DNA of 55,654 bases from Candidatus Omnitrophota bacterium (GTDB lineage Bacteria > Omnitrophota > Gorgyraeia > Gygaellales > Profunditerraquicolaceae), in contig JAPLLV010000054.1 in assembly GCA_026387405.1 (NCBI GenBank), positions 1 to 55,654 on the forward strand. The letters run 5' to 3'. Made by a program: the position numbers and the translations under genes. Under the pieces are notes generated by a model. The model made no database searches and was not told where the DNA came from. It saw only the letters and a program-made list of their open reading frames with translations. This document shows, piece after piece, positions 36,749 to 54,938 of the stretch (position 1 is its first letter; each line of letters opens with the position of its first letter).

Positions 36749-37678
36749 CTATATTTTCTCAATCACTGCCTGGGCTAAAAGCGGCAGCATGATCTCATGA
36801 TGCCCGATAATATAATAACCTTTACCGCCGGACATAACCGGGCGCGATACCACATTCTGCTGCGGGCGGTAATGAAAGATCATATCAAAATTGGCGGTGA
36901 CAAAATCCTTGACCTTGCTGCCCAGGTTGCGGGATAGATTCAGCGCCTTTAGAAATACCTCCGGCAATACTACTGCCGAGCCGAAATTAAGCACCACGCC
37001 GCCGCGATTCAGTTTGGAGATATTCTCCACCAGGGTATGAAAATCCCTCAAAGAACCTTCGGCAGTGAGCGCGGCATTAAAGCTGGGGTGCTGATGGATG
37101 ATATCCGTGCCTATTGCCACAAATACGCAGACCGGAATATTATTCTTATAGGCGTTATAGAGCAGGCTAAGGTTCTTATAGGGGAGCTTTGAGGCGTCTA
37201 TCTTACTGGCAATAGCATAACCTAAACCATATCCCTGGCGCACGCCCTGTCTCACCGCTTCATTTAAAAACTCCGCGGTCTCCTGGCCCATGCCGAACCT
37301 GCCGGTCTTTAGTTCCTTAGCCACGTCCTCGGAGGTCTTGCCCTGCAAGGCGATCTCAAAATCATGGATAATACCCGCGCCGTTCAGGCATATACAGGTA
37401 ATTACCTTCTTCTTAATCAGCTCTATGACTATGGGGTTAAGGCCGCACTTGATCACATGCGCCCCGGCCATAAAGATGACGCCTTTTTTGGCCTTGCGCG
37501 CCTTAACTACTGCTTCAGCCACAGCCTTCAAATCGCTTGCCTTTAATATGTGCGGCAGGGAGTTGTAGAAAGCGGCGAAACTCCGGCCCTTGGCAGGCGG
37601 CTGGGCGAAATCCTGGCTGCGCACCTTACTAAAGCGCTTTTTCAGCGAATATGTCTTTACCTTATTAATATTGAGCAT
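36749..37678 (-). CDS. Conserved protein with deoxyhypusine-synthase-like fold, neighbour of heptose genes
   Basis: GAHVIKCG, NGAGIIHD, IGTDIIHQHP, GSAVVLPEVFLKA, GHHEIMLPLL; family assignment from memory. Confidence 0.6.
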   Translation of the reverse strand: MLNINKVKTYSLKKRFSKVRSQDFAQPPAKGRSFAAFYNSLPHILKASDLKAVAEAVVKARKAKKGVIFMAGAHVIKCGLNPIVIELIKKKVITCICLNGAGIIHDFEIALQGKTSEDVAKELKTGRFGMGQETAEFLNEAVRQGVRQGYGLGYAIASKIDASKLPYKNLSLLYNAYKNNIPVCVFVAIGTDIIHQHPSFNAALTAEGSLRDFHTLVENISKLNRGGVVLNFGSAVVLPEVFLKALNLSRNLGSKVKDFVTANFDMIFHYRPQQNVVSRPVMSGGKGYYIIGHHEIMLPLLAQAVIEKI

Positions 37679-37781
37679 GCACTTTCCTTTACCAGAACAT
37701 ATAATTTTAGCATAAATTCCGTTTTAAGCAACTATTTTTGCCTGGTTTTCCCTTCCCCTCTGCTCTTATTTGCTTCGCTAA

Positions 37782-37835
37782 AGAGACTGTCCCCGCAGCG
37801 CTATACCGTTAGTGGTGTTGGAGGGGACTGTCTCT
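37782..37835. repeat. About 55-bp GGGGACAGTCCCC-bounded element, copy 1
   Basis: Reverse complement aligns closely with 53919-53973. Confidence 0.88.
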
Positions 37836-37842
37836 GCCTTTC

Positions 37843-38017
37843 GTTTGCTTCGGGATATTGTTCGCGCACGAATTTTTTCGCCGCGCGCTACAGTTTACGG
37901 TTCGCTCCGTTCGCCAACGTCTGGGACCAACTTACGGTAGCTCACTTTGCTCACCGTAAAACTTTGCGCTTTTGCCGAAAAAATTCTAATTGTGCGCTCA
38001 CAACATCCCTCGCAAAC
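37843..38017. repeat. About 175-nt imperfect long hairpin
   Basis: Nested stems GGGATATTGT/ACAACATCCC, GAATTTTTTCG/CGAAAAAATTC, TTTACGGT/ACCGTAAA. Confidence 0.8.
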
Positions 38018-38095
38018 TCAAACACCGTTCGAAACATGCCTCGCCACCGCTAAAGCAAACCACGAAACTAAAAAATAGAAACGGTGTCTACTTTT

Positions 38096-38707
38096 CTACA
38101 TATTTTTTAAGCGTAAAAAATACAAAAGATCTGATTCATTAGATTTTCTTTTGAAACTAAAAAGATCCTCCCAATGCCCTAGACGCTCATTCATTTGTTT
38201 TAATCTTTGGTTCCTCGTTTCTCGAGGAATGTTTTGAGCAAATTGTTTGTCGTCTTCATTATACAAACCGTCATTCTTTAAGGTGTATTCGGTTTGTGTA
38301 AAGACTTCTTGTAACATCTCGCGTAAAACTTTCATGTAATCTTGCTTTGCAACGCTATCAAATATAATGTTACATCCCCAAGTTAAACAAATAGTAAATA
38401 AAACAAGAAAGAAAAAATTATAGGGTGGACTTAAGAAAATACTCTCAGACTTAGGCTGAGTATTATTCAAAAAAGAACTTAATAACTGCAAAAGAATTGA
38501 AATGACAAGCAACAACAATCCCCCCACTCCCTCATTTTTTTGGATTATCTTATTTTTAATTGCAAATGGATTGGATCCAAAATATGCTTGTGATTCATTT
38601 TTGATATCCTTGACCCCACTAAAAATGTATCCTTTTCCTAAAATCAAGGTACCGGCAATCCCAAAACATAAACTGAGCAAGATCAAATCACTTCCATTTA
38701 TCTTCAT
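38096..38707 (-). CDS. Hypothetical membrane protein (3 TM) enclosed by 15-bp inverted repeats
   Basis: SD GAGGAG before MKING; inverted repeats at 38071-38085 and 38751-38765. Confidence 0.75.
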   Translation of the reverse strand: MKINGSDLILLSLCFGIAGTLILGKGYIFSGVKDIKNESQAYFGSNPFAIKNKIIQKNEGVGGLLLLVISILLQLLSSFLNNTQPKSESIFLSPPYNFFFLVLFTICLTWGCNIIFDSVAKQDYMKVLREMLQEVFTQTEYTLKNDGLYNEDDKQFAQNIPRETRNQRLKQMNERLGHWEDLFSFKRKSNESDLLYFLRLKNM

Positions 38708-38773
38708 AATTGTCTCCTCGTGTAAATCATGATTTCTGAGGTAAAATGGGACCGTTTCTATTTTTCTGATATT

Positions 38774-38832
38774 ACAGACACTTTCCATTCTAATCGGGAA
38801 ACCGTACCCAAGCTACGCTGGAAAGTATCTGT
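38774..38832. repeat. 59-bp element M, copy 1 (ACAGACACTTTCC...GGAAAGTRTCTGT)
   Basis: Other copies at 41139-41197, 41345-41403, 43633-43674 (partial) and 44616-44674 (flipped). Confidence 0.92.
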
Positions 38833-38882
38833 TTCCCTTAACTTGTCACCTTGGGGAACGTCACCAATTCCTTTCTATTGTT

Positions 38883-39185
38883 TCAAATATTTGCCTTACA
38901 AGCATCGCACAATTGGATATTATTTATTGCAGCAGTTACTGGCACATCGTACGGCTGTTTACACTTTGAACAGAGATGCCGTAAGCCGCTATTATACGGA
39001 TACGTGCCTCCTTGTATAACCTTTCCTAAAACCAAATCATTCAAAGTAAGAAAAGGCCCAGATTGGCTTTTTTTCAGTTCCTTATTTAATATTTCTATTT
39101 TTCTTTGGGAAGCTTCAAATGCCAACCTAAAAGCATCACGTTGTTCTATCGCCTCAATATTTGAATCATTCGCCTTTTTTGCCAA
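38883..39185 (-). CDS. Hypothetical protein, coiled coil plus C-terminal CxxC...CxxC
   Basis: CSKC...CDAC. Confidence 0.65.
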   Translation of the reverse strand: MAKKANDSNIEAIEQRDAFRLAFEASQRKIEILNKELKKSQSGPFLTLNDLVLGKVIQGGTYPYNSGLRHLCSKCKQPYDVPVTAAINNIQLCDACKANI

Positions 39186-39307
39186 TATTAATGAAAAAAG
39201 GGGAAAAAAGGGGACGTTTCTGTTTTCTAGAAATCAGAAACGGTCACTATTTATTGCTTCTGGGGAGGTTCCCTAAAGGCCTGCCTACCGGTAGGCAGGG
39301 ACACTCC

Positions 39308-39386
39308 TTTTAAAACACGTGTTCCAATCTATTTATTTATCGCTAGTTATAAGCGCTTAACCTGTCACCTTGGGGAAACGCCCCCA
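39308..39386. repeat. About 78-bp direct repeat, copy A (copy B at 40540-40618)
   Basis: CGTGTTCCAATCTATTTATTTATCRCTASTTATAAGCGCTTAACCTGTCAC shared. Confidence 0.92.
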
Positions 39387-39391
39387 ATTCC

Positions 39392-40531
39392 TTATCTTAT
39401 ACCAAGAGCTGCTTTAACTTCCTCTATAGAAAAAAACTCTTGCTCGATTCCTCTCGGATAACTATCAAGAAGAACTTTACCGCTAAAATCAATAAAGAAA
39501 ACTTTAGCAAAAGAAAATTCACGACCATCAATCTCCCTATTATATCTTACAATAAGACGAAGAAGTCCCGCTTTGTATCCTTTTGCATCTGAAAGAAAGA
39601 AGTCTAACATCTGCTTATGGATTTCTTTAAATTCTATCTGAAAATCTTTAGCCTCTCCTTTCTTAATAACAGGAATAATGTGATTTGGCTGTATAGAAAA
39701 TATACCAAAACGGTTTAGGGAGATAGGTTTGTCTGGTAGTTTTTGTGCTACAAAATAATCTTCATAAATCTCTATATCAATAATATTGGATAGGCCAGCA
39801 TTTTTCAAAGATAGCGTAAAACTAGCAACATTATTCCCTATAACTGTTTTTTCTGGAACGACTCTAATAACTGGCTCCTGCGATAATGCGAGTTGATTTG
39901 ATGCAATTTTATTAGCCTGTACTGATATTATAATTGCCATTATTGATAAAGAGGTGGCTGTGATTGTTTCAAAAAATATTTTATTTCTTTCTAAGCAATT
40001 ACGAATACAATTGGGGAATATAAAGGGCGTTTCCTTCTTGTATTCGCGATAGGCATCGCCGAAGCGGCCGACAAGCTCTGGCTCTTCAATAAACTTAATC
40101 TCAAAGCATAACAATACCTTTACGCCTATGGCTGATATAAGAAAACCCCATTGATTCCGCCATAAGGCCCAGCCAAGAAGATAAAGAAAAAATCCCAGCA
40201 TCATTGGATTACGTACAAAACGATATGGTCCATTATTCAAAAAATGTTTGGTCGGCACAACTGGCACAGGCGTACCTTTACCTTTCACCAGCTGCCAAGC
40301 TATAGCCCAGACCATCCAAGGAACTCCTACAGCAAATGACACTCCTGAAATTATCCGCGATAACAATTCCGGCATAATCGGCTGCCTCATAAAAACATTG
40401 CCCATCCAGAAAACAAATGCCGGCATCCCGACTAGAAAGAGTATTGCACCCAGGAGGGTAGCCAGGGTACGCACGGCAACGCCATGTTCCTTCTTTCCTC
40501 TTTTGACCAAGAATTCAACTATGTCGATCAT
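39392..40531 (-). CDS. Chimeric ORF: isoprenylcysteine carboxyl methyltransferase/PEMT-like membrane domain fused to an unrelated AT-rich domain
   Basis: GPYRFVRNPMMLG and EEPELVGRFGDAYREYKKETP in the N-half; second TM and unknown domain after about residue 175. Confidence 0.7.
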   Translation of the reverse strand: MIDIVEFLVKRGKKEHGVAVRTLATLLGAILFLVGMPAFVFWMGNVFMRQPIMPELLSRIISGVSFAVGVPWMVWAIAWQLVKGKGTPVPVVPTKHFLNNGPYRFVRNPMMLGFFLYLLGWALWRNQWGFLISAIGVKVLLCFEIKFIEEPELVGRFGDAYREYKKETPFIFPNCIRNCLERNKIFFETITATSLSIMAIIISVQANKIASNQLALSQEPVIRVVPEKTVIGNNVASFTLSLKNAGLSNIIDIEIYEDYFVAQKLPDKPISLNRFGIFSIQPNHIIPVIKKGEAKDFQIEFKEIHKQMLDFFLSDAKGYKAGLLRLIVRYNREIDGREFSFAKVFFIDFSGKVLLDSYPRGIEQEFFSIEEVKAALGIR

Positions 40532-40665
40532 AAGGCTAATTTTGAAAACCCGTGTTCCAATCTATTTATTTATCACTACTTATAAGCGCTTAACCTGTCA
40601 CTTTGGGGGAACGTCCCCGGTGTGCTTAAAAAGGAAATTATCCCCTATTTTGCACAAACTATAAA

Positions 40666-41112
40666 CTACTTTACGCTAACCTCGTTTTCGAGTAAATTTA
40701 TTGTACAGTGTTGACTGCCTCCTGCTCCGACCTGAATACTACCAACATTTTTACTTCCTGTGCGTGTTCCCTGAACCAAAGCTACTAGCTGGTATGTCGT
40801 ATTATTGTTCAATAAAACTTCAAAATTGTTCTTACCCCAGCTCAATCGTTGGCGAAAAGCCATTTTTTCTCCTGAGGGAATATTTTCTTTACCTACGAGC
40901 AAAACGCCATTGTTAGTAAATGGCCCCACAAGAAGAAGCATTGCAGCCTCCCCACCTCCGATAGAAGACATACTTCTGACAAATCCCTTATCTAGAGTAA
41001 CATCGAAACTAACATTCGTAGCATTCGTTCGGTCTATAATGAAGTGTTTGGTACATTCAGCACAACCAGAAAGGATTAGCGCCAAAATAATGATGCTTAG
41101 CTTTTTTATCAT
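40666..41112 (-). CDS. Hypothetical lipoprotein
   Basis: Signal peptide with LSGC lipobox; SD AGGAGG. Confidence 0.8.
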   Translation of the reverse strand: MIKKLSIIILALILSGCAECTKHFIIDRTNATNVSFDVTLDKGFVRSMSSIGGGEAAMLLLVGPFTNNGVLLVGKENIPSGEKMAFRQRLSWGKNNFEVLLNNNTTYQLVALVQGTRTGSKNVGSIQVGAGGSQHCTINLLENEVSVK

Positions 41113-41138
41113 AATTTCCTCCTTTTAGTTAGCATTTT

Positions 41139-41197
41139 ATAGACACTTTCCATTCTAATCGGGAAACTGTACCCAGGCTACGCTGGAAAGTGTCTGT
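41139..41197. repeat. 59-bp element M, copy 2
   Basis: Near-identical to copy 1. Confidence 0.92.
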
Positions 41198-41344
41198 TTC
41201 CCTTAACCTGTCACCTTGGGGAACATTCCCAATCCCGATTCGCTCGCTTCTCGCAAATTGAATTTACAGTCTTTGCCGAATTTGAGTTAACGTCTTAACG
41301 ATGCAAAACCCTTGAAACTGTTTCGTATACTTCTTTGCACTTTA

Positions 41345-41403
41345 ACAGACGCTTTCCATTCTAAACGGGAAACTGTACCCAAGCTACGCTGGAAAATGTC
41401 TCT
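41345..41403. repeat. 59-bp element M, copy 3
   Basis: Near-identical to copy 1. Confidence 0.9.
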
Positions 41404-41443
41404 TTTCTCGCTTCACCTGTCACCTTGGAGAACGCCCCGATCC

Positions 41444-41800
41444 CTATTCGTAGAGAAAATCAACGCTATCGACAATGCCATCTTTAAAATGAACGAACTT
41501 ATTCGCCATTGACACAATATCCCACCTATACTCCCACTGTTCCTCGTTATCCTTATAAAATTGAGGAGCTATTTTTCTGTTGCCTATAGAATGGGGCTTC
41601 CCCCAAGATGCCAAAACATCTTCTTTTGTCATCCCCTTAACAACCAAACCCTGTTCGATTGCTTTCTTAATATTTGGGTCGACATCTTTTATTGATTGGA
41701 CGTAAGACACTCGATCAGCTGTCGATGGTTTGAACAACGGGCTTGAAGCACAGCCAGCGCATGCCATAGACGCGATCAAAACAACAATAATTTCTTTCAT
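41444..41800 (-). CDS. Lipoprotein with SmpA/BamE-like domain
   Basis: CAGC lipobox; GMTKEDVLASWGKP...EQWEY. Confidence 0.72.
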   Translation of the reverse strand: MKEIIVVLIASMACAGCASSPLFKPSTADRVSYVQSIKDVDPNIKKAIEQGLVVKGMTKEDVLASWGKPHSIGNRKIAPQFYKDNEEQWEYRWDIVSMANKFVHFKDGIVDSVDFLYE

Positions 41801-41802
41801 TG

Positions 41803-41828
41803 TGACCTTCCCCTCTTTAGTGGACAGG
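41803..41828. mobile_element. IS3-family-like terminal inverted repeat, orphan (second copy 43753-43778)
   Basis: TGACCTTCCCCTSTTTAGTGGACAGG resembles IS3-family ends. Confidence 0.55.
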
Positions 41829-41865
41829 TTGTTAAAATATTAATGCCTGTTTGCGAATTGACGAT

Positions 41866-42975
41866 TTACTTATCCCTTCCCGATGCTTTCTTAAGTTTAT
41901 TGAGAAATTCAGGATTAACAGTTTGTCCTAACTCTTCTGCTTTATGTACATCTGCCCAGGCTTTATCATATTCTTTGGCCAAATAATAGATCAAGCCGCG
42001 TTTTTGATAGGTCTCTGCATCGTTAGGGTTAATTGCGATAGCCTTTGTAAGGTCAGAGATAGCTTGAGACAAATTACCTTGGTCAACATAAACAATTCCA
42101 CGGTTGATATAAGCATCTGAACTGTTAGGGTTTATTTCTATGGCCTTGGTATAGTCAGAGACAGCTTCAGATAATTTGCCTTGTTCAGCATAAACAACGC
42201 CGCGGTTGAAAAAGGCATCTCCGCGCTCGGCAACGTCAAGGTTGGAATAGACATCTGCAGGATTAGCGCTTATTTCTATAGCCTTGGTATAGTCAGAGAT
42301 AGCTTGTGCAACATTGCCTTGCTTGTAATAAGCAGTTCCACGAGTATAGTAGGCAGCTGCGTACATAGGATTAATCTCAATAGCTTTAGTATAATCAGGG
42401 GTGGCTTGATACAAGTTACCTTGTTTATCATAAACAACCCCGCGGCTATAATATGGCCCTGCATCGTTAGGGTTTATTTCTATGGCCTTGGTATAGTCAG
42501 AGACAGCTTGGGACAAATTACCTTGGTCAGCATAAGCAATACCACGGTTGTGATATGCCTCCATATAATTAGGATTGATTTTAATGGCCTTGGTATAATC
42601 AGAGATAGCTTGAGCAAGGTTACCTTGCTTATGATAAGCATTACCACTTTGTAAATATCCTTCCACGGTCTCAACATTTGTATTATTCTCTTTTTGAGAT
42701 TCTATTTTGGGCCCTATATCAGAAGCCGTGTTAGGCTTATTAAGAGATGCCGCAGATTTAAAAATTACCTGCTGCCCATCAATAGATTCTACTTCATCCA
42801 TGAAAAGCGTTAAAGGAACTCCATAAAAATCTATCTTTATATACTTATCTGTTTTTTCAATTAACTTGCCTTCCATAGTTTTTCCGGATTTCAAAACAAT
42901 GGTTTCAGCAAAAGATAGAGATGGGAAATACAAGCTAAATACCAGCAACAAAATCACTAACCTTTCCTTCTCCAT
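41866..42975 (-). CDS. Exported tetratricopeptide-repeat protein
   Basis: Signal peptide; six to seven 34-aa repeats (AISDYTKAIEINP), visible as 102-bp DNA repeats. Confidence 0.92.
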   Translation of the reverse strand: MEKERLVILLLVFSLYFPSLSFAETIVLKSGKTMEGKLIEKTDKYIKIDFYGVPLTLFMDEVESIDGQQVIFKSAASLNKPNTASDIGPKIESQKENNTNVETVEGYLQSGNAYHKQGNLAQAISDYTKAIKINPNYMEAYHNRGIAYADQGNLSQAVSDYTKAIEINPNDAGPYYSRGVVYDKQGNLYQATPDYTKAIEINPMYAAAYYTRGTAYYKQGNVAQAISDYTKAIEISANPADVYSNLDVAERGDAFFNRGVVYAEQGKLSEAVSDYTKAIEINPNSSDAYINRGIVYVDQGNLSQAISDLTKAIAINPNDAETYQKRGLIYYLAKEYDKAWADVHKAEELGQTVNPEFLNKLKKASGRDK

Positions 42976-42993
42976 TATTCCTCCATCTCTCCA

Positions 42994-43059
42994 TTAAGAT
43001 AGTGCTGCATGTTTTTTGTATTCGGAAGAACTCAGGTAACCGAGCGTCGAATGCGCCCT
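42994..43059 (-). pseudogene. IS3-family transposase C-terminal relic
   Basis: Manual translation RAHSTLGYLSSSEYKKHAALS* matches the HS.LGY.SP..YE integrase-core tail. Confidence 0.7.
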
Positions 43060-43126
43060 TTTAAACAAAAAGGACTCTGAACGGTTAAGTCCAGCCCATT
43101 GTGGAATTGACTAAAAACAAGTTAAC

Positions 43127-43567
43127 CTATTTATCTCTACCAGAGTCCCCCTTTAACAGTTTGAGGAATTCAGGTTCAATGGTAAGCCCTAATTCTTCTG
43201 CTTTATTTACATCTGCCCAAGCCTTGTCATATTCTTTTGTTTTATAATAGGCACGCCCGCGGCCACGGTAGGCCCCTCCATCATTAGGGTTAATTTCAAT
43301 GGCCTTGGTATAGTCAGAGATGGCTTGAGTAAAGTTGCCTTGTTGAACATAGGCAGACCCACGGAGGTCGTAGGCCATTGCATAATTAGGGTCAATTTTA
43401 ATGGCCTTGGTATAGTCAGAGATGGCTTGAGAATAGTTACCTTTACCGGCATAGAAAAGCCCACGATTAAAATACTCTTCCGCAGTCTCAGCATAGACAG
43501 AAGAAACACTTAAAAATAATATCCCTACTAAAAAAAACATCATTATTCTGGAACTATTGTGCTTCAT
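43127..43567 (-). CDS. Short exported TPR protein, paralog of 41866-42975
   Basis: Signal peptide, three TPRs, shared tail KAWADV.KAEELG...PEFL..LK..SGRDK. Confidence 0.9.
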   Translation of the reverse strand: MKHNSSRIMMFFLVGILFLSVSSVYAETAEEYFNRGLFYAGKGNYSQAISDYTKAIKIDPNYAMAYDLRGSAYVQQGNFTQAISDYTKAIEINPNDGGAYRGRGRAYYKTKEYDKAWADVNKAEELGLTIEPEFLKLLKGDSGRDK

Positions 43568-43842
43568 CTTTTACCTCCTCGTTAAGAAACTAACGCCTGT
43601 TTTTCATACTCAAAAGGGCTTAAATAACCAAGTAATCGGGAAACTGTACCCAAGCTACGTTGGAAAGTGTCTGTTTCCCTGTTTCCCTGCATTCTTTGTG
43701 CCAATCGAGATTAATTGTAATATGTAAAATTAACAAAACCAAAATTGTGAAATGACCTTCCCCTGTTTAGTGGACAGGTTATTAAGTTATAACACCTGCT
43801 GCTTAAACTGCTCCTTTACTTTGGGGCGCGTAAGGTAATAAA

Positions 43843-44448
43843 TTAAAAATAATCAGAATGCTTGAGTAACATTGCGTGGTAATTAAAGAGCCAATATCCG
43901 TAATACAAAAGGAGAATCACCGAAGCACAAATTGTTAATATTCGGCCCTGTGTTTTTAGGAGTAACAAGGTCACTGCACTTATCAATGACAATAAGCTGA
44001 GAATGATGTAAGAAATACCCCATAGACGAAGGTGCGGTTTAAGAAGCGAACTGTCAAAAAAGTTACCAATTCCTGAATAAAGAAAAGTAAGGGATACCGA
44101 GATAATAAAAATTCCATAGATTGTCACACCAACGAGCCTCTTTTTAGGCGTTGGATATAATAAGGTTACAAATAAACATACCCAAAACATTAAATCAAAG
44201 CTTTTTATAAATAATATTGACAGTAGCGAGCGGTCTTTTAAGAAAATAAATAAAGCTTTCGAAAAAGGATAGGAGATTCCATGGAGAGTACGTAGTAAAT
44301 TATACAATAAAATCTTTACTGGCTCCCCCAGGTTCTCTTTAGTAACAAACGCCAACAAAGGTTTATACCAAAATAAAAAAAATTGCGTGACGATAAAAAC
44401 CGTTACCCCAAATATAATGCTCTTAATAAGTAACTTGCCGTTTTTCAT
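43843..44448 (-). CDS. Polytopic membrane protein with a probably frameshifted 3' end
   Basis: SD GGAG before MKNGK; out-of-frame YYLTRPKVKEQF just past the stop. Confidence 0.6.
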   Translation of the reverse strand: MKNGKLLIKSIIFGVTVFIVTQFFLFWYKPLLAFVTKENLGEPVKILLYNLLRTLHGISYPFSKALFIFLKDRSLLSILFIKSFDLMFWVCLFVTLLYPTPKKRLVGVTIYGIFIISVSLTFLYSGIGNFFDSSLLKPHLRLWGISYIILSLLSLISAVTLLLLKTQGRILTICASVILLLYYGYWLFNYHAMLLKHSDYF

Positions 44449-44615
44449 TCGTTCTCCCAGTAGAGTCGATTTTCCGGCTATGGCCATACCAGATTGTAAA
44501 ATGGGGACGTTTCTATTTTTTCTTCAGCCTCCTGAAGCGATTAACATGAATAATCGCTTCAATATCTGATACAATTAACCGTATAATCGCGTCTAAATCA
44601 AGGCTTATTTATTTT

Positions 44616-44674
44616 ACAGACACTTTCCAGCACAGCATGAAGACAGTTTCCCGTTTAGGACGGAAAGCGTCTAT
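44616..44674. repeat. 59-bp element M, flipped and diverged copy
   Basis: Interior CAGTTTCCCGTTTAG is the reverse complement of the other copies. Confidence 0.85.
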
Positions 44675-44689
44675 ATACCTGTTTCCCCT

Positions 44690-44989
44690 TCATTTCTCCT
44701 TCAGTGTCTTAAGCGCCCAAAGGATAAAGCGAATAACGGCAATAATGGGATAACCAAACAAAGCAATGTTTTTGCCAAGAGACATGATCCTTATGTATGG
44801 CGTATAACCGACCAGAGAATATTTCATTTGCTTTATGATTTTGAACTTAGCCTCTTGGTGCTGGATTAAATAAATACTATTAAAATGCCTGCCAATAAAA
44901 TATACAGCCAATCCCAGGATCGCGATACCCAACAAAATCAAACCTTCTCTTGCAATAATTTTCTTAATGTTTATCTTTTGATTATCCAT
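44690..44989 (-). CDS. Small membrane protein (2 TM)
   Basis: IIAREGLILLG...GYPIIAVIRFILWA. Confidence 0.72.
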   Translation of the reverse strand: MDNQKINIKKIIAREGLILLGIAILGLAVYFIGRHFNSIYLIQHQEAKFKIIKQMKYSLVGYTPYIRIMSLGKNIALFGYPIIAVIRFILWALKTLKEK

Positions 44990-45048
44990 CTATAAACAAT
45001 CGTAAAGTGGTTTGGGGGAACGTCCCCGATTCGTTTCTAAATAATATA

Positions 45049-45717
45049 TTATAATCGAGATATGATAGAATGTCCGATATTTAGGATAGATTCCCTTGCC
45101 CTGCTCTTAAAAACAACAAATTTAAAATACAGGCTATTGAGATCTTGACCGGTTATATCTTTGACTTTCCTATTAACAACAATTGAGTATAGCGGGTATC
45201 CGGAAAGATCTATTTCTCGAAAGTTAGTTTGCTTTTTTATTTTAGCATATACATTTGAAGGACGGTTGGGGTCTTCTCCGATATTTAAAATCTCACAGTC
45301 TGCAAAAATATACCTGATATCGTTTTGAGAGTATCGCCAAAAATCATTTGGAAAACTATGATAAAAGTAATTTGACGGTACAAAAATAAGCATGATGCCG
45401 TTTGGACTACAGATGCGCTTTATATTAGAAACAGCAGATCTCCAATCCCTGATATGTTCCAAAACACACGTGACAATAACCACGTCGAAGCTTTCCTGGC
45501 CAAATTTCTCAACAAGTTTTTCTGCAGGACAGATTAAATCCACTCCGGGGCCGGGGATAATATCTACCCCCAAGTATTTTGCAGGTTTAAGCATTTCAAC
45601 AACGTAACGCAGGCTACCGTTAACGTCATAAGCACCGATTTCAATGACCCGTTTACCTATCACTTCATCAACCGATAAATTTGCACCTACCCATTTAAAA
45701 CAATTTAAAGTGCACAT
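45049..45717 (-). CDS. Class I SAM-dependent methyltransferase
   Basis: VIEIGAYDVNG, LGVDI, SFDVVIVTCVLEHI. Confidence 0.85.
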   Translation of the reverse strand: MCTLNCFKWVGANLSVDEVIGKRVIEIGAYDVNGSLRYVVEMLKPAKYLGVDIIPGPGVDLICPAEKLVEKFGQESFDVVIVTCVLEHIRDWRSAVSNIKRICSPNGIMLIFVPSNYFYHSFPNDFWRYSQNDIRYIFADCEILNIGEDPNRPSNVYAKIKKQTNFREIDLSGYPLYSIVVNRKVKDITGQDLNSLYFKFVVFKSRARESILNIGHSIISRL

Positions 45718-45825
45718 AATTTAATTTTCTCTTTATCTTTTGATTATCTATATATAAACAATCGTAAAGTGGGGACGTTTCTGTTTTTCAAAAATTGGAA
45801 ACGGTCCTATTTTTTGTAGCTCCGG

Positions 45826-46290
45826 TTACCTAAACTGTTCCCTTACTTTGGGACGGGTGAAGAAATAGATAGTTAGTATGTACAGTAATAAACCAAAGAT
45901 AACGGAAATATTATAACCCACGGAGAGCGGATAATGTACAGTATTTTTACCCAAAATCTTAAAAGCCTGATCCAATATGCCCCAAATTGCAACTAAGATA
46001 ATCCCAGTTAAAGACCATCTTTTTAGCCTGAACAGCCCAATTGTGGCTATTAGCGTAATAATTCCTAAGGGCAATGTTTGTTTTATCTTTGACTGATAAT
46101 ATTTGTCTATTTCCGCGATAGAATTAATCCCCAATTGCTGTGTGGTAGGATTTTTCAATACTTCAATTTTATGTTCCTGTGGCAGGCTGATAATTGCGAA
46201 TGATATTAGCGCTGCTAATATGCAACTAACGGCTGAAATCAAGTAAATCCAAGAAAACACTATAACTCCAATCGATTTTTTATTCTCCAC
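45826..46290 (-). CDS. Membrane protein (4 TM) with C-terminal TRPKVREQF motif
   Basis: GTG start with SD AGGAGG; hydrophobic helices. Confidence 0.78.
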   Translation of the reverse strand: MENKKSIGVIVFSWIYLISAVSCILAALISFAIISLPQEHKIEVLKNPTTQQLGINSIAEIDKYYQSKIKQTLPLGIITLIATIGLFRLKRWSLTGIILVAIWGILDQAFKILGKNTVHYPLSVGYNISVIFGLLLYILTIYFFTRPKVREQFR

Positions 46291-46354
46291 GCTTCCTCCT
46301 TCGTTAAGACATTAACGCCTGTTTTGGAAACGCCCCAGGTTCGTCTAGTTCTTA

Positions 46355-46489
46355 TTAATCCTCTTCTATCTCAAAACGACAGCCGCATATATTGCATTCA
46401 TAAATCGACATTTCCTCATTAGGCTCGACAAACCGCGTATCCTTACTATTACACTGAGGACATTCAACAGGCGGATTCCATTCAGGCAT
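46355..46489 (-). CDS. 44-aa zinc-ribbon microprotein (not in ORF track)
   Basis: MPEWNPPVECPQCNSKDTRFVEPNEEMSIYECNICGCRFEIEED; SD AGGAG. Confidence 0.75.
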   Translation of the reverse strand: MPEWNPPVECPQCNSKDTRFVEPNEEMSIYECNICGCRFEIEED

Positions 46490-46584
46490 AATCTTCTGCT
46501 CCTAAACAACTACTAATTGTTTATTGTTCATCTCTGGTTTCTGTCCCTATTGTAAAAATGGGGACGTTTCTATTTTTCAACGCC

Positions 46585-47001
46585 TTAATCGCCTATTATT
46601 TTTAGCAAGACCCGCTTTTTACGCCGGCCGTCAAATTCTGCGTAAAATATCTGTTCCCACGGGCCGAAATCAAGTTTGCCGTTAGTAATCGCGACTACTA
46701 CTACCCTGCCCATTATGGTCCTTTTCAGGTGGGCATCTCCATTGTCTTCGCCGCCAAGGTTATGCCTGTATTTATCTTTACCGTATGGCGCAAGTTTTTC
46801 CAGCCAGGCGCTGAAATCGCTATGCAGCCCCGGCTCATCATCATTGATAAAAATCGAACTGGTGATATGCATCGCATTCACCAGGCACAGGCCTTCCTTA
46901 ATCCCGCTCTTCTTAAGCTCTTCTTCCACCTGCGGGGTTATATTTATAAACTCCTGCCTGTTCTTTGTGTTAAACCATAAATATTGGGTATGGGATCTCA
47001 T
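46585..47001 (-). CDS. yjbQ: YjbQ family protein (secondary thiamine-phosphate synthase, UPF0047)
   Basis: [37 protein letters not shown]. Confidence 0.93.
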
Positions 47002-47038
47002 TTTTCTCTTCCGAATCCGGGGTTCAGGAAGTTCCTAT

Positions 47039-47506
47039 TTAATATTTAAGTCCGAGCCCTGTATCCATTTTCCAATTACCATCTTCTTTAATAAATACCG
47101 GAGAGCCCTGGGTATCATCTTCCCCGGAATATTTCAAAGTAACATTCATAAGTACGGCTTCTTTTCCTTCCCAGCCGGCATCGAAAGAAACCTCTACGGG
47201 TGATTTGTCCGTTAGTTTCATGCCATATTGTGCGATCATTTTAATAACATTGCTCGAGGCATATCTTTTATATGACTCGATATCTCTTTTTTGTATCGCC
47301 ATCCTGATCTCTTCGAAAATAGGCATAACTTCACTAAGCGCAGCGGATTCCTTATAATTACTGCTGTTAAATGATTTAGAATTATAGACATGCCCGAAGG
47401 ATTCGAATGTCCCTTCCTCCAGGGCACGCACTTGTTGTAATGATAGTAGATTATAGCTAAAGATTACAAGCAGACATACCCCTAATAAAATAAACGATCT
47501 TCTCAT
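47039..47506 (-). CDS. Hypothetical exported protein
   Basis: Signal peptide; FIKEDGNWKM end typical of NTF2-like small exported domains; SD GGAGG. Confidence 0.7.
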   Translation of the reverse strand: MRRSFILLGVCLLVIFSYNLLSLQQVRALEEGTFESFGHVYNSKSFNSSNYKESAALSEVMPIFEEIRMAIQKRDIESYKRYASSNVIKMIAQYGMKLTDKSPVEVSFDAGWEGKEAVLMNVTLKYSGEDDTQGSPVFIKEDGNWKMDTGLGLKY

Positions 47507-47523
47507 TTCCTTGCCTCCTCTTT

Positions 47524-48024
47524 TTAAAACTTCTCCCAGTGCAGTATTTCTTGTACGCTTCTCTTCTCAGCCGCTTTAAAACTATTCTCCCCTTTAGGAT
47601 AACCCAGAGGAACCAGGCTGATAAGTTTAAAGGCATCGGAAAGGCCGAGTATCTTATTTATCTCACTGCAATACGGCTTTTTATCCCCGGCTACCCAGCA
47701 AGAACCAACACCTAGATCAGCTGCGGCCAGAAGGATATTTTGCGTGGCCGCGCAGCCGTCTTCCAAATAATATTTGGTATCTTGGCAGTAAACCGCGATA
47801 CAGGCCTTGGCCTGGGCAAGGAATCTTCCATTCTCTGCCAATCCCGCTATTCTCTTGAGCGTCTCCGCTTTGGTGATCACAATAAACTCCCAGGGCTGGA
47901 CTGCCCTGGCCGTAGGGGCAAACCTGGCCGCGTCTATTATCTTTTCTAATATCTCTTTGGGTATAGGTTTATCCTTATATTCCCTGATACTCCTCCTGAT
48001 CTTTATCAGCTCTAATGCATCCAT
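47524..48024 (-). CDS. Nitroreductase family protein
   Basis: RRSIREY, ARFAPTARAVQPWEF, NILLAAADLGVGSCWV, LVPLGYP. Confidence 0.93.
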   Translation of the reverse strand: MDALELIKIRRSIREYKDKPIPKEILEKIIDAARFAPTARAVQPWEFIVITKAETLKRIAGLAENGRFLAQAKACIAVYCQDTKYYLEDGCAATQNILLAAADLGVGSCWVAGDKKPYCSEINKILGLSDAFKLISLVPLGYPKGENSFKAAEKRSVQEILHWEKF

Positions 48025-48084
48025 TTCTATTTCCCTCCCTGCGGAAAAATCCGCGATCTTGGGGAACGTCCCCGATCCTTTGTT

Positions 48085-48801
48085 TTATCTATATTTAATT
48101 AAATAATAACATGTTTTTAAAAAAGCTTTCGGGATCTCGATCATAAGGTTTAGTTTTGACTGGCCATAAACCCGGTCAACAAAAGTAACCGGGACTTGTG
48201 CTATTTTCAATCCCTTGTGTTTTGCTTTTATGATCATTTCAAACAGCATAACATTGGTATTCTCGTCAATTTCAAGAACATTCCAGGAATCCTTTTTGAT
48301 TGCCCTGAAATTAGCCGAAAAATCATCTATGTTTAATCCGGATAAAATTTTTAAAGCGTTGTTTCCCAGCTTGCTGATCAAACCCTTGATAGTGGTACGC
48401 AAATCTTTCATCTCATAATAACTGCCGCGTATACTATGCCTGCAGCCAACCACGAGATCATAACCTTCGATAATCTTATCAAACAATTTTTTCATGTCTT
48501 TAACTGAAAAAGATAAATCGGCGTCACTTGAAAGAATAATTCCAGATCGCGCAAAATCATAGCCTTCATGAAGAGCCGATCCAATACCACGTTTGTTCTT
48601 CCTTGTTATGAATCTAATATTCCCGTACGTTTTATTCAATTCTAATGCCAGGCCTGAAGTATTATCAGTGGAATTATCATCGACAATGATAATTTCGTGC
48701 TTAACCTGATGAAAGAATTTTTCTATTCCGGGTATAAGTACCGCCAAATTTTCCCGCTCATTTAAAGTGGGCAGGATAATGGATAGTTCCGGATTTTCCA
48801 T
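48085..48801 (-). CDS. GT2 glycosyltransferase (polyprenol-phosphate sugar synthase-like)
   Basis: SIILPTLNE, IVDDNSTD, SDADLS, FVDRVYGQSK; start set at MENPEL. Confidence 0.9.
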   Translation of the reverse strand: MENPELSIILPTLNERENLAVLIPGIEKFFHQVKHEIIIVDDNSTDNTSGLALELNKTYGNIRFITRKNKRGIGSALHEGYDFARSGIILSSDADLSFSVKDMKKLFDKIIEGYDLVVGCRHSIRGSYYEMKDLRTTIKGLISKLGNNALKILSGLNIDDFSANFRAIKKDSWNVLEIDENTNVMLFEMIIKAKHKGLKIAQVPVTFVDRVYGQSKLNLMIEIPKAFLKTCYYLIKYR

Positions 48802-52883: not shown

Positions 52884-54938
52884 TTAAACTCCTCCTTTCA
52901 AAATTTCTTCTGCCACGTTCAAGACATCTTGCGTGCTTATCGCCTGCATGCACTTGAACTCCCGGACGCAGTTGTGCGCCAGGCATTCAATGCAGCCGAC
53001 GGGCTTATGCAAAAAACGGTCCCTCTTGCCTACCGGACCCCAGCGTTTCGGGCTCAAACCTTTCTGGTCCCTGCCGAATATGGAGATCACCGGCACCCCT
53101 ACTGCCGAGCCGATATGCACCGGCCCGGAATCATTGGAGATGAATAGGCTGCAGCGCGATAACAAGGCCGCCAATTGCGAGAGCGAAAGCCTGCCTGCCA
53201 GATCAATGGCCTTTTCCCGCATATTGGTAATAAGGTCCTGCGCCAAGGGCCTCTCTTTAGGCCCGGCAACTACCAAAACCTTAAAACCGTATCCTTGCGC
53301 CAATCTGTCCGCTACCTCGGCAAATCTTTGCGCCGGCCATATCTTGGAAGGGCAGCTCGCCCCGGGATTGATCGCCAACAGCGCGTCTTTTTCTTTTATA
53401 CCTTCCCGCCTTAACAGTTCGTCTACGGCCTGTATTGCCTCCGATTTTATCGGCACAAAGATATTTTTGTCCGCCGGCGTAATGCCCAAAACTTTGAGCA
53501 GGTCAAAATTATATTCTAATTCGTGCTTTTGGCCGCTTTGTTTAGTATGAGGGATTCTGTCGGTAAGCAAAAAACCGAGCTTGCGGTCATATCCGATCCT
53601 TCTTTTTATCCCTGCCAAAAAAGTCACCAGGTGCACGCGGTTGGTCGGGTGCAGTATAAGCGCCAGGTCAAACCTTTTTTTCTTAAGGTTCCTGGCGAAC
53701 TCTAGAGTCCTGCGCCAGCTCTTATGTTTTGTGTCTTTATCATAGATGATCACTTCATCTAAGTAAGGATTACCTTCAACGATCTCTTTAGTATAAGGGC
53801 TGACCATCATGGCAATGTAGGCGCTGGGATATCTCTCCCGCACTGCCTTTATAACCGGGGTGGATAAAACCACATCCCCTATCCTGTCGGTGCGCACGAT
53901 AAGGATACGCTTTAAATCGGGGACAGTCCCCTTCAAGACCACTGACGGATATAGCTCTGCGGGGACAGTCCCCTTGAGAATATTCCTCACCTGTTTAAGC
54001 ACGTCCTCCACCTGCACCATCTGTATGCATTCCATGCTGTTTAAACGGCACTGCGCTTTTCCGCAGGGCCGGCAGGCAATATCTTTTTTTACAAAGACTG
54101 ACCTGCTTGACCAGGGGCCGTATTTTGCTTCATCGGTGGGCCCGAAGATAGCCACGATCGCGCGGTCCAGGTAACTCGCCAGGTGTAAGATCGCGCTGTC
54201 ATTGGTAACCACAAGGTCCGCCTTCTTTAATAAATACGCGAGTTCGATCAGGCTGGTAGTGCCGGTGAGATCCAGAAGCGGATACCGGCAATGTTCAATA
54301 ATATATTTGGCAATCGCGGAATCATCCTTGTCTCCGATCAAGACTATCTTGGCCTTGAATTCTTCAACCAAAGCCTCGATCAGGCGCGCGAACTTATCCT
54401 GGTTCCATCTTTTGATGTGGCTGCGCGCTCCGGGGGCGATCAAGATGACTTTATCCTTATCGCTTACACCATGATCTTTAAGCTTCTTGTTTATATATTC
54501 CTCTTCCTCGGTCTTCATAGTAATGATCGAAGTGAGGATATTTAAGTTCTGGCTTTTGACTTTTAAATTTTGAATTTTATAAAGATGCCTGTCCTTCATG
54601 TGTTTTATGGACGAGGGGACAAAAGGAAGGAAAGAAACCCGCGCCCTTGCCGGCAGCAGCGCCCCGAAAAAACTATTACGCAAGTCTACCACCAGGTCAA
54701 ACTTCTCTTGGCTTAAGCGCCGGAACAATCTTATCTTCTCTCTTAAGGGTGAGCGCTTATCAAAGATGATCAGACTGTGGATATTCAGGTTATTCTCAAA
54801 TAATTCTTTGGGCCTGGAGCCGCAGATAACGGTGATCTGCGCCGAAGGAAAACTCTGCCTTAAAGTATCTAAGGCCGGCAGGGTCAGGATCACGTCTCCG
54901 ATATTGCTTAAGGTAATAAAAAGAATTTTTTTTATCAT
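52884..54938 (-). CDS. Tandem double-domain GT9 glycosyltransferase (heptosyltransferase II-like)
   Basis: Two GT9 units, each with IGDVxL, NDSxxxH and IFGP/IFGR motifs. Confidence 0.92.
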   Translation of the reverse strand: MIKKILFITLSNIGDVILTLPALDTLRQSFPSAQITVICGSRPKELFENNLNIHSLIIFDKRSPLREKIRLFRRLSQEKFDLVVDLRNSFFGALLPARARVSFLPFVPSSIKHMKDRHLYKIQNLKVKSQNLNILTSIITMKTEEEEYINKKLKDHGVSDKDKVILIAPGARSHIKRWNQDKFARLIEALVEEFKAKIVLIGDKDDSAIAKYIIEHCRYPLLDLTGTTSLIELAYLLKKADLVVTNDSAILHLASYLDRAIVAIFGPTDEAKYGPWSSRSVFVKKDIACRPCGKAQCRLNSMECIQMVQVEDVLKQVRNILKGTVPAELYPSVVLKGTVPDLKRILIVRTDRIGDVVLSTPVIKAVRERYPSAYIAMMVSPYTKEIVEGNPYLDEVIIYDKDTKHKSWRRTLEFARNLKKKRFDLALILHPTNRVHLVTFLAGIKRRIGYDRKLGFLLTDRIPHTKQSGQKHELEYNFDLLKVLGITPADKNIFVPIKSEAIQAVDELLRREGIKEKDALLAINPGASCPSKIWPAQRFAEVADRLAQGYGFKVLVVAGPKERPLAQDLITNMREKAIDLAGRLSLSQLAALLSRCSLFISNDSGPVHIGSAVGVPVISIFGRDQKGLSPKRWGPVGKRDRFLHKPVGCIECLAHNCVREFKCMQAISTQDVLNVAEEILKGGV
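53919..53973. repeat. About 55-bp GGGGACAGTCCCC-bounded element, copy 2, in-frame in the GT9 linker
   Basis: Encodes GTVPAELYPSVVLKGTVP; matches 37782-37835. Confidence 0.9.
54554..54581. repeat. Degenerate heptamer tandem TTTT(G/A)AN x4 in GT9
   Basis: Encodes YKIQNLKVKS. Confidence 0.7.

Follow-up and report, generated by a model that had tools for sequence, protein, structure and literature searches.

A 59-bp intergenic repeat as a probable solo copy of the three-arm palindromes that end RAYT units in Candidatus Omnitrophota

We propose that the 59-bp element recurring in the window (the whole 55,654-nucleotide stretch of Candidatus Omnitrophota DNA analysed here, 55.6 kb) is very probably a non-autonomous repeat, a solo version of the three-arm palindrome found at both ends of RAYT units in this phylum. 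Judging from its protein sequence, the RAYT in question is a REP-associated tyrosine transposase of the Y1 HUH type, related to the IS200/IS605 transposases. An origin at RAYT ends makes the element a miniature mobile repeat of a familiar, ordinary type rather than a gene switch. The preliminary description of this DNA had offered a MITE or an invertible switch; the first half of that suggestion essentially stands, given that the nearest relatives are RAYT terminal repeats, while the second is not supported.

Results

Copies of the element in the window

Four full 59-bp copies and one truncated copy were found, all in intergenic space. Bit scores are those of the covariance model described below.

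38774-38832, + strand: full copy 1, LE-type orientation, 67.4 bits; arm1 38778-38786, loop 38787-38796, arm2 38797-38805, spacer 38806-38819, arm3 38820-38828
38829-38837, + strand: CTGTTTCCC, arm-like flank right of copy 1, matching the type-2 arm of the family, ACTGTTTCC
38838-38871, + strand: 'B' motif TTAACYTGTCACCTTGGGGAACG.., also at 41203-41236 and 41409-41442, attached to copies 1-3
41139-41197, + strand: full copy 2, 75.6 bits; arm1 41143-41151, loop 41152-41161, arm2 41162-41170, spacer 41171-41184, arm3 41185-41193
41194-41202, + strand: CTGTTTCCC, right of copy 2
41345-41403, + strand: full copy 3, 70.4 bits; outer stem the most degenerate of the copies (11/14)
43633-43674, + strand: truncated copy, 26.9 bits (E=4e-6), with arm2, spacer and arm3 kept
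43671-43687, + strand: CTGTTTCC CTGTTTCC(C), tandem pair right of the truncated copy
44616-44674, - strand: flipped full copy, RE-type when read on the + strand; 69.7 bits on - against 31.4 on +
44679-44688, + strand: CTGTTTCCCC, right of the flipped copy, 8 nt (CTATATAC) past the arm

That five copies lie at these positions, one of them reverse-complemented, had been noted before and is confirmed here in three ways. The 22-nt core, with at most one mismatch, has four sites in the window and none in 100 shuffles; the segment 44616-44674 matches the reverse complement of 41138-41197 at 83% over 60 nt; and a search with a covariance model of 32 family members, which included the four full copies of the window, recovered the same five sites in the 55.6 kb and no others at E<0.05. 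The terminal inverted repeats are imperfect, as originally reported, with 11-13 of 14 positions matching. In the truncated copy arm1 is missing, as is the first half of the loop, and the tandem duplication already described follows it, with CTGTTTCC beginning at 43671 and 43679.

The forward copies are identical to one another at 53-55 of 59 positions, whereas the flipped copy, read on its own strand, agrees with them at 46-49. The difference extends to the core, where the flipped copy shares 22-24 of 31 positions with the forward copies and these share 29 of 31 among themselves; both the loop (GTCCTAAACG) and the spacer (CTTCATGCTGTGCT) of the flipped copy have diverged. Such divergence of the core is a poor fit to a recently switched copy. 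Folding as single-stranded DNA, which had been suggested as a check, favoured two of the three forward copies: copies 1 and 2 folded better than all 200 shuffles, with z about -4 (copy 2, -12.6 kcal/mol, z -4.25), whereas copy 3 reached a z of only -0.65.

The copies lie in a low-GC island of about 15 kb that is missing from relatives. The elements are probably co-transcribed with the neighbouring genes, since every one of these is encoded on the minus strand and the gene at 40666-41112 has its ATG 26 nt downstream of the end of copy 2; the elements may have a secondary role as mRNA hairpins.

Sequence to the right of the copies

The sequence CTGTTTCC occurs five times in the whole window, always on the + strand and to the right of an element (38829, 41194, 43671, 43679 and 44679). 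The earlier observation that the same flank persists to the right of the flipped core is correct, with 8 nt (CTATATAC) intervening between the arm and CTGTTTCC. Both + strand flanks of the flipped locus resemble those of the forward loci, TTAC-AG lying to the left and CTGTTTCC to the right. With the 'B' motif included, copies 1 and 2 are 90% identical over 103 nt. The CTGTTTCC flank is best interpreted as one more arm (type-2, ACTGTTTCC) belonging to the element's own repeat superfamily; the alternating-arm grammar of the family would place such an arm after a reverse arm. In the forward copies, however, CTGTTTCC adjoins arm3, whereas the short tandem units of other genomes are found on the arm1 side, and thus the shared flank is only partly accounted for.

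A three-arm family with fixed geometry

The element consists of arm1 (ACRCTTTCC), a 10-nt loop ending in AATCG, arm2 (GGAMASTGT), a 14-nt spacer and arm3 (GGAAAGYGT). This exact 9-10-9-14-9 geometry is common to 33 distinct elements from many Candidatus Omnitrophota MAGs. Across the family, 91.5% of arm1:arm3 and 85.5% of arm1:arm2 positions pair, figures that have to be read with the knowledge that the members of the alignment (A1) were selected for arm complementarity. The same selection bears on the covariation test, in which both hairpins gave a weak signal because the arm sequences are too conserved to be informative. The arm1:arm3 position 7/53 is mostly G:T. At the 5' foot, columns 1-4 of alignment A1 read ACAG, AGAG, AGAA or ATAG, so that only the A in column 3 is invariant, and there is no GT(A/G)G head of the kind found in classical REPs.

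The three full forward copies carry on their minus strand the hexamer TAGAAT, which had been put forward as a possible -10 box. The hexamer is not conserved and lies within the 5 nt of the loop that are free to vary over the family; none of the copies overlaps a sigma-70-like site, and the number of promoter-like sites is at chance level (26 against 25.2). The -10 box is not supported.

The module is nearly confined to Omnitrophota MAGs (22 of 24 loci). Its Omnitrophota loci number more than 119 among the matches listed, with at least 6-10 copies per MAG, and some other MAGs, e.g., JAHFGN01, contain it as inverted doublets. An exact-core scan of the GTDB species representatives gave no match, which indicates that the species is not represented there.

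Association with RAYT genes

A metagenome scan with a degenerate core located a near-identical element directly upstream of the ORF L001:11742-12227. The product of this ORF matches Pfam Y1_Tnp (5.6e-17) and passes the NCBIfam model NF047646 (REP_Tyr_transpos) with 82.9 bits (cut-off 80), whereas it scores 20.1 bits against the NCBIfam IS200 model (cut-off 55); its sole PDB match is 4ER8, E. coli TnpA_REP. The RAYT signature comprises HUH, the catalytic Tyr, an N-terminal Thr and NP(L/V)(R/K)xG (Nunvar 2010, PMC2817692). The Omnitrophota protein contains YHIT with the N-terminal Thr, NHIH as the HUH motif, and HYVEFNPVRAK with the catalytic Tyr followed by NPVRA; the last residue of the signature is K, not G.

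The arrangement is a recurrent one. In more than 12 related contigs the element lies about 70 nt 5' of the RAYT gene and an inverted copy lies 3' of the gene. RAYT genes adjoin the module in L001, L002, L003, L009, L011 and L027, and the ends are inverted on both sides in L001, L002, L009/L030, L011/L029, L027, L031-L035, L081 and L243-L254, the left end being the three-arm element and the right end its inverted form, each of about 55 nt. The same organisation holds for Omnitrophota RAYTs that are 55-92% identical (L029-L035, L081, L243-L254), and the module is missing from the three non-Omnitrophota RAYT loci inspected. Some Omnitrophota RAYTs occupy a conserved position directly after a ComM/YifB-type gene, and one contig contains two RAYT copies that are 99.4% identical together with a nested partial copy.

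At 48-50 of 55 positions (about 90%) the window copies agree with the left ends of L244 and L249, with which they also share the otherwise variable loop ATTCT. The loop of the flipped copy resembles instead that of the L243 left end (GTCCT), and this copy has GCTGTGCT as in L001. We conclude from these comparisons that the flipped copy at 44616-44674 is the same element reversed, in the right-end orientation of a RAYT unit, and belongs to an older or separate lineage.

The 55.6-kb window itself has no RAYT gene. The metagenomes that hold the window contain element-bounded RAYT-like contigs at a depth about 0.3 times that of the window, and on a 6.3-kb contig whose depth is like that of the window RAYT sequence is limited to a 65-nt fragment, together with a right end; the RAYT contigs looked up via homologues all come from samples other than those of the window. 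Contigs were compared from 8 DNA runs and from look-ups with exact proteins; they showed no empty site, inverted form, strain variant or other direct trace of movement, all being identical to the window save for an unrelated 49-nt indel.

Discussion

How a solo element might move

E. coli TnpA_REP and IS608 TnpA suggest, by analogy, the following course of events. In single-stranded DNA, such as that at a replication fork, arm1 would pair with arm3 or, leaving one conserved mismatch, with arm2. The hairpin, together with the conserved AATCG loop, would be recognised by a RAYT dimer, which would cleave and rejoin the strand beside the foot of the hairpin, so that the short element would be copied or moved in trans.

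Alternative explanations

Apart from an origin as a reversed right end, the flipped copy might have arisen by a rare, unregulated inversion of the hairpin loop in place, through template switching or recombination in the 14-bp stem, a variant of the RAYT-end explanation that we consider unlikely. Small hairpin-loop inversions are known from organelle DNA, and a 14-bp inverted repeat around 31 nt would be the type of structure prone to such events; the forward-like flanks on both sides of the flipped locus also speak for it. The core and spacer, however, belong to another sublineage (with GCTGTGCT shared with L001 and the loop GTCCT with L243), 8 extra nucleotides separate the arm from CTGTTTCC, and an arm-like CTGTTTCC is the simpler account of the common flank.

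It is also rather doubtful that the element is primarily a cis-acting RNA hairpin that processes, stabilises or terminates polycistronic minus-strand transcripts, with the tie to RAYT being secondary. Every copy is intergenic and lies between co-directional genes, and the minus-strand version folds at -13.6 kcal/mol (z -4.4). Such roles are reported for classical REPs (PMC3733652). The G:T at arm1:arm3 position 7/53 would become a G:U pair in RNA from the forward strand of the element, but for four of the five copies the strand favoured by this pairing is the one antisense to the genes. Furthermore, the copies are not followed by T-runs and coincide with no predicted terminator-like site; Rfam scans of 36-49 kb (in E-value mode) and of four related loci gave no relevant match to any family; and coverage was zero in three metatranscriptomes from the same sampling campaign. 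A hairpin function would also leave the fixed linkage to both ends of the RAYT gene unexplained.

A highly improbable alternative is that the three-arm element exists at a fixed site as two isomers, arm-10-arm-14-arm and arm-14-arm-10-arm, interconverted in place by the RAYT or by hairpin-mediated template switching. If this is true, then the switch would be one driven by a single-strand DNA transposase. On this reading the element and other palindromes nearby might also contribute to building up the variable 15-kb gene island at a conserved hotspot.

The phase-variable switch suggested earlier, in which the 14-bp terminal repeats would serve as recombination sites and inversion of the 31-bp core would direct a promoter at the downstream gene or away from it, is scarcely tenable. 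The inverted repeats are real and the flipped locus keeps its forward-like + strand flanks (TTAC-AG and CTGTTTCC), but the flipped copy occupies a different locus and its core has diverged to 22-24 of 31 positions, against 29 of 31 among the forward copies. There is no recombinase domain or integrase among the 20 ORFs of 35.7-51.6 kb, and no promoter-like site on the copies, TAGAAT being unconserved. A 31-bp segment is far below known invertible-segment lengths, all of which, to our knowledge, are much greater. The assembled contigs of 8 runs show a single arrangement, although rare forms would drop out of contigs. The left and right ends of RAYT units, the latter including the orientation of the flipped copy, fully account for both orientations.

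Integron attC sites separating gene cassettes can be practically discounted: the short co-directional gene array, repeat-bearing spacers and lineage-specific low-GC island recall cassettes, but canonical attC sites were rejected with no RYYYAAC...GTTRRRY pair on either strand of 37679-48100 (2.2 in shuffles), the element is without core sites, the same 20 ORFs contain no integrase, and the element's relatives flank a Y1 transposase, not cassettes.

Comparison with known systems

The closest parallel is the REP/BIME system with its RAYT (E. coli TnpA_REP, 'REPtrons'; Nunvar 2010, PMC2817692; Messing 2012, PMC3479197). Both have a short extragenic palindrome in several copies with alternating arms, and a cognate Y1 HUH transposase gene between inverted copies, which in Omnitrophota is seen in related contigs; the Omnitrophota protein passes the NCBIfam RAYT model and matches only TnpA_REP in the PDB. 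Unlike REPs, which are single hairpins of 20-40 nt, the Omnitrophota unit has three arms, fixed 10-nt and 14-nt spacers and an AATCG loop; its foot is NNAG rather than a GT(A/G)G head, it is AT-richer, and copies are seen at about ten or more per MAG, not hundreds. We found no literature linking Omnitrophota to REP or RAYT. Since arm3 reads GGAAAGCGTCT, the CGTC-tagged REP superfamily of Di Nocera 2013 was considered and rejected: the C/TGTC lies within the stem and is not an unpaired tag, and stem and loop sizes differ.

As described in the same paper (PMC3733652), TIRtrons (TIRYT) have a RAYT-like gene bounded by long TIRs unlike GTAG REPs, with moderately abundant repeat families dispersed as singles, dimers or clusters. 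The Omnitrophota RAYT likewise has inverted three-arm ends of about 55 nt and dispersed copies elsewhere. The GGGGWSAS motif attributed there to many such repeats is absent from the 59-bp element. A second local repeat, GGGGACGTTTC, resembles this motif.

REPINs (Bertels & Rainey 2011, PMC3116915) are also non-autonomous units, whose mobilisation in trans is ascribed to a RAYT passed on by vertical descent; the window copies differ in being a single arm1-loop-arm2-spacer-arm3 unit, not a doublet of two self-palindromic REPs, and the contig with two 99.4% identical RAYTs and a nested partial copy is more IS-like than typical single-copy RAYTs. With IS200/IS605 elements (IS608; PATEs) the family shares a related transposase fold and, by analogy, presumably a hairpin-guided, single-strand mechanism, and their miniature derivatives likewise consist of end sequences only. 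The Omnitrophota protein, however, is far under the IS200 model cut-off (20 vs 55), the RAYT ends are true inverted repeats, which those of IS608 are not, and the units are without tnpB. Invertons of the fimS and hin types resemble the element in having inverted repeats around a short segment seen in both orientations relative to neighbouring genes, but the element has neither invertase nor promoter, and its 31-bp cores are diverged and at different loci.

Implications

A solo RAYT end strikes one candidate phase-variation switch off the list and provides Candidatus Omnitrophota, an uncultured and little-studied phylum, with a defined family of REP-like repeats and the transposase likely to act on them. 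For annotation, it explains why certain intergenic repeats and assembly breakpoints occur in Omnitrophota MAGs, and the unusually rigid three-arm geometry with its conserved loop offers a clean substrate for tests of RAYT recognition and processing.

Copies of the 59-bp element

The 59-bp element is a real feature of the window, where all four full copies lie within 38.7-44.7 kb.

Copies of the element in the window
38774-38832, forward, full copy (copy 1)
41139-41197, forward, full copy (copy 2)
41345-41403, forward, full copy (copy 3)
43633-43674, truncated copy
44616-44674, opposite strand, full copy (flipped copy)

The 22-nt core was found at 4 sites in the window with ≤1 mismatch, as against 0 in 100 shuffles, and the fifth site (44616-44674) is a reverse-complement match of 83% over 60 nt. 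The layout of the five copies and their flank in the preliminary description was accurate. The forward copies are identical to one another at 53-55/59 positions and to the opposite-strand copy at 46-49/59; within the core the values are 29/31 and 22-24/31, so that divergence is clearly greater in the flipped core. The family's covariance model returned the five known sites, with 44616-44674 on the minus strand, and no others in the 55.6-kb window, although the model was also trained on the 4 full window copies and its independent information is the truncated copy and the absence of further matches.

Each copy consists, in order, of AG (2 nt), arm1 (ACRCTTTCC), a 10-nt loop ending in AA(T/A)CG, arm2 (GGAAACYGT), a 14-nt spacer, arm3 (GGAAARTRT) and CT. 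Two pairings are open to arm1: with arm3, giving the 13-14-bp 'terminal inverted repeat' of the window copies, and with arm2, with one C:C mismatch. Folding and covariation had been proposed as checks. As ssDNA, copies 1 and 2 folded better than every one of 200 shuffles (z about -4), whereas copy 3 did not (z -0.65). Covariation was weak (one G-C pair replaced by A-T, in four sequences) because the arms are conserved in sequence and the element set was selected for complementarity. The pair counts across this set, 91.5% for arm1:arm3 and 85.5% for arm1:arm2, come from elements picked for complementarity and are not taken as structural proof of hairpins.

The top covariance-model match outside the family (13.7 bits, E 0.05) is an imperfect hairpin, AGAGACTGTCCCC-N26-GGGGACTGTCTCT, at 37782-37835, on the left edge of the island described below, which may be a decayed relative of the family.

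RAYT genes bounded by the element

Among GTDB species representatives, the exact core gave 0 matches. When metagenome contigs were scanned with a degenerate core, a near-identical element was found in L001, one of the related loci (L numbers) from metagenome contigs or Omnitrophota MAGs, with an ORF about 70 nt downstream. This ORF matches Pfam Y1_Tnp at 5.6e-17, scores 82.9 bits with the NCBIfam equivalog 'REP-associated tyrosine transposase' (RAYT; cut-off 80) and falls far under the cut-off of the IS200 model. Its sole PDB match is 4ER8 (E. coli TnpA_REP), and it contains YHIT, NHIH and HYVEFNPVRAK, motifs of a type described as RAYT hallmarks (Nunvar 2010).

The module pattern occurred at 24 GTDB loci, 22 of them in Omnitrophota, and a looser pattern at no fewer than 119, almost all in Omnitrophota among the matches listed, with at least 6-10 per MAG. 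In every case examined, RAYT genes adjoin the module. Upstream of the gene, at the left end of the unit, lies the three-arm element; at the right end it recurs in inverted form (arm-14-arm-10-arm), an arrangement that holds across Omnitrophota RAYTs of 55-92% identity; the module was not found at the three non-Omnitrophota RAYT loci inspected. The protein family comprises 1232 clusters at E≤1e-30, named only 'transposase [Candidatus Omnitrophota]'.

Some Omnitrophota RAYTs lie directly after a ComM/YifB-type gene, and this constant position suggests vertical inheritance. On contig Ga0247841_10002271, a RAYT 5' end (L001, 11380-11760) is cut after codon 20 (CATATTAC) by an insert made up of a second left end and a complete RAYT, and another RAYT copy, 99.4% identical, lies elsewhere on the contig (L002). 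Two such RAYTs and a nested partial one on a single contig constitute IS-like behavior, which suggests that the whole unit is still mobile in this organism.

Relation of the window copies to RAYT ends

The exact 9-10-9-14-9 geometry is common to 33 distinct elements from at least 25 loci. The first five loop bases vary freely across the family; the window loop ATTCTAATCG is shared with the RAYT left ends in L244/L245/L247 and L249-L253, which are identical to copies 1-3 at 48-50/55 positions.

The window contains no RAYT. The metagenomes that hold it contain RAYT-like contigs about 85% identical to L001, with the element at the start and end, at about 0.3 times the depth of the window. A 6.3-kb contig of window-like depth has just 65 nt of a RAYT, joined to a right end, which is compatible with a decayed RAYT copy in the genome of the window. 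No empty site of the element was found in the contigs compared.

The CTGTTTCC flank and the hairpin foot

CTGTTTCC occurs five times in the window, always on the + strand and just to the right of an element, including a tandem pair after the truncated copy. Its sequence agrees with the family's type-2 arm, ACTGTTTCC, present in 104 modules, and elsewhere in the family such a forward arm comes immediately after a reverse arm; we therefore read CTGTTTCC as a putative fourth arm and not as host flank. That it lies to the arm3 side of the forward copies is not accounted for by the arrangements in other loci. Copies 1 and 2 are 90% identical over 103 nt, including the next motif, so that three of the four CTGTTTCC-element associations may go back to a single inherited composite.

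Immediately beyond the hairpin foot, on the 5' side of arm1, a tandem duplication of 7-11 nt was observed in 17 of 71 type-1 modules, compared with 138 of 5000 random positions. The duplicated unit differs at every locus (CTAACAG x3, AGGTCAGAG x2 and, after the L244 right end, CTGTTATC x3, for example). Loci with such duplications include L001, L006, L008, L014, L017, L120 and L196; the window's CTGTTTCC CTGTTTCC, at 43671-43686, looks like the same phenomenon. These duplications may be a footprint of RAYT activity.

The island and its other repeats

All genes of the window are on the minus strand, and G+C falls at 38 kb from about 0.50 to 0.35-0.43. The nearest genomes are Candidatus Omnitrophota MAGs, in which the protein of 36749-37678 is 72-77% identical and the gene order of 31.4-37.7 kb is kept. 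In six related MAGs the next upstream gene is the orthologue of 52884-54938; because the two flanking genes are adjacent there, 37.7-52.9 kb is an island specific to this lineage, and the site is a variable one. In one relative, L227, a different insert of 7 kb occupies this position, and two relatives carry a family module some 60 nt upstream of the conserved gene.

Other features of the region
37679-38060: short stretches shared with a GC-rich noncoding block upstream of the 309-aa gene in L218, L220, L224, L230 and L232
37680-52883: low-GC island, roughly 15 kb, with small genes of unknown function, TPR proteins, methyltransferases, GT2/PMT glycosyltransferases and DUF1646
38070-38090, 38745-38765, 39205-39252, 44497-44520, 45765-45813, 46554-46577: GGGGACGTTTCTATTTTT / AAAAATAGAAACGGTC repeats
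38838-38871, 39357-39391, 40590-40622, 41203-41236, 41409-41442 (core also at 45015, 46325, 48061): TTAACCTGTCACCTTGGGGAACGTCCCC motif

By eye, the GC-rich block (roughly 170-400 nt) precedes a conserved deoxyhypusine-synthase-like gene. Its orientation differs between MAGs, it is seemingly doubled in L218, short stretches of it such as AAACATGCCTCGCCACC recur in the window, and it had no Rfam match.

The arms GGGGACGTTTCTATTTTT / AAAAATAGAAACGGTC define a second palindromic family, present either as hairpins or as lone arms. Most of them lie 30-70 nt upstream of the start of a minus-strand gene, and the family is similar to the GGGGWSAS repeats (Di Nocera 2013). Gene 38096-38709 sits between the two members of an inverted pair; inverted pairs are also present in Omnitrophota loci L031, L171, L181, L193 and L208. 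In L031 the motif adjoins a RAYT left end, and in L244 an arm-like GAAACGGTCC adjoins the right end. The TTAACCTGTCACCTTGGGGAACGTCCCC motif directly follows stop codons of minus-strand genes and is nearly absent from the other loci compared; two sites are preceded by a common 45-nt block (39308-39356 and 40541-40589, 91% identical).

A 38-nt leader (41803-41840) containing the ribosome-binding site of gene 41444-41800 is duplicated at 43753-43790 (89% identical); this second copy, with no gene behind it, is likely to be a remnant. Read in reverse complement, the leader resembles the TTAACCTGTCACC motif, so that the gene is bracketed by an imperfect inverted repeat. At 43846-43851, all public contigs have 49 extra bases, absent from the window and flanked by a TTTTAA microrepeat; in the window a 238-aa membrane protein is cut to 201 aa. 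The difference reflects either strain variation or an error of assembly.

Interpretation of the element

The preliminary description had proposed either an invertible switch or a site-specific MITE. A switch, in which the core flips in place, fails on several counts: no recombinase lies near the copies (integrase, invertase and transposase genes are absent among 20 ORFs at 35.7-51.6 kb), contigs from eight runs have one arrangement only (assembled contigs drop rare variants, so that a flip at low frequency may have been missed), and the flipped core is diverged. The flipped copy has the RAYT right-end orientation and belongs to a different sublineage (its loop, GTCCTAAACG, is similar to the L243 left end), and is therefore accounted for without a switch. 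The suggestion that TAGAAT is a -10 box also failed, as the hexamer sits in the variable part of the loop and no copy has a promoter-like site, such sites being at chance level overall (26 vs 25.2). Canonical attC sites were absent at 37679-48100.

The MITE idea held up in a specific form, the ends of Omnitrophota RAYTs being a near-identical element: the 59-bp element is very likely a RAYT-unit terminal repeat present as a solo copy, REP/TIR-like and non-autonomous. By analogy with E. coli TnpA_REP and IS608, the element would form a hairpin in single-stranded DNA, which RAYT would recognize, cleaving and rejoining at the hairpin foot. The nearest known kinds are REPtrons and the 'TIRtrons' described by Di Nocera 2013; we found no paper in the literature searched joining Omnitrophota with the terms REP, RAYT or REPIN. 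Details that may be worth the attention of specialists are the rigid geometry of the three arms, the conservation of the AATCG loop and the tandem duplications beside the hairpin foot.
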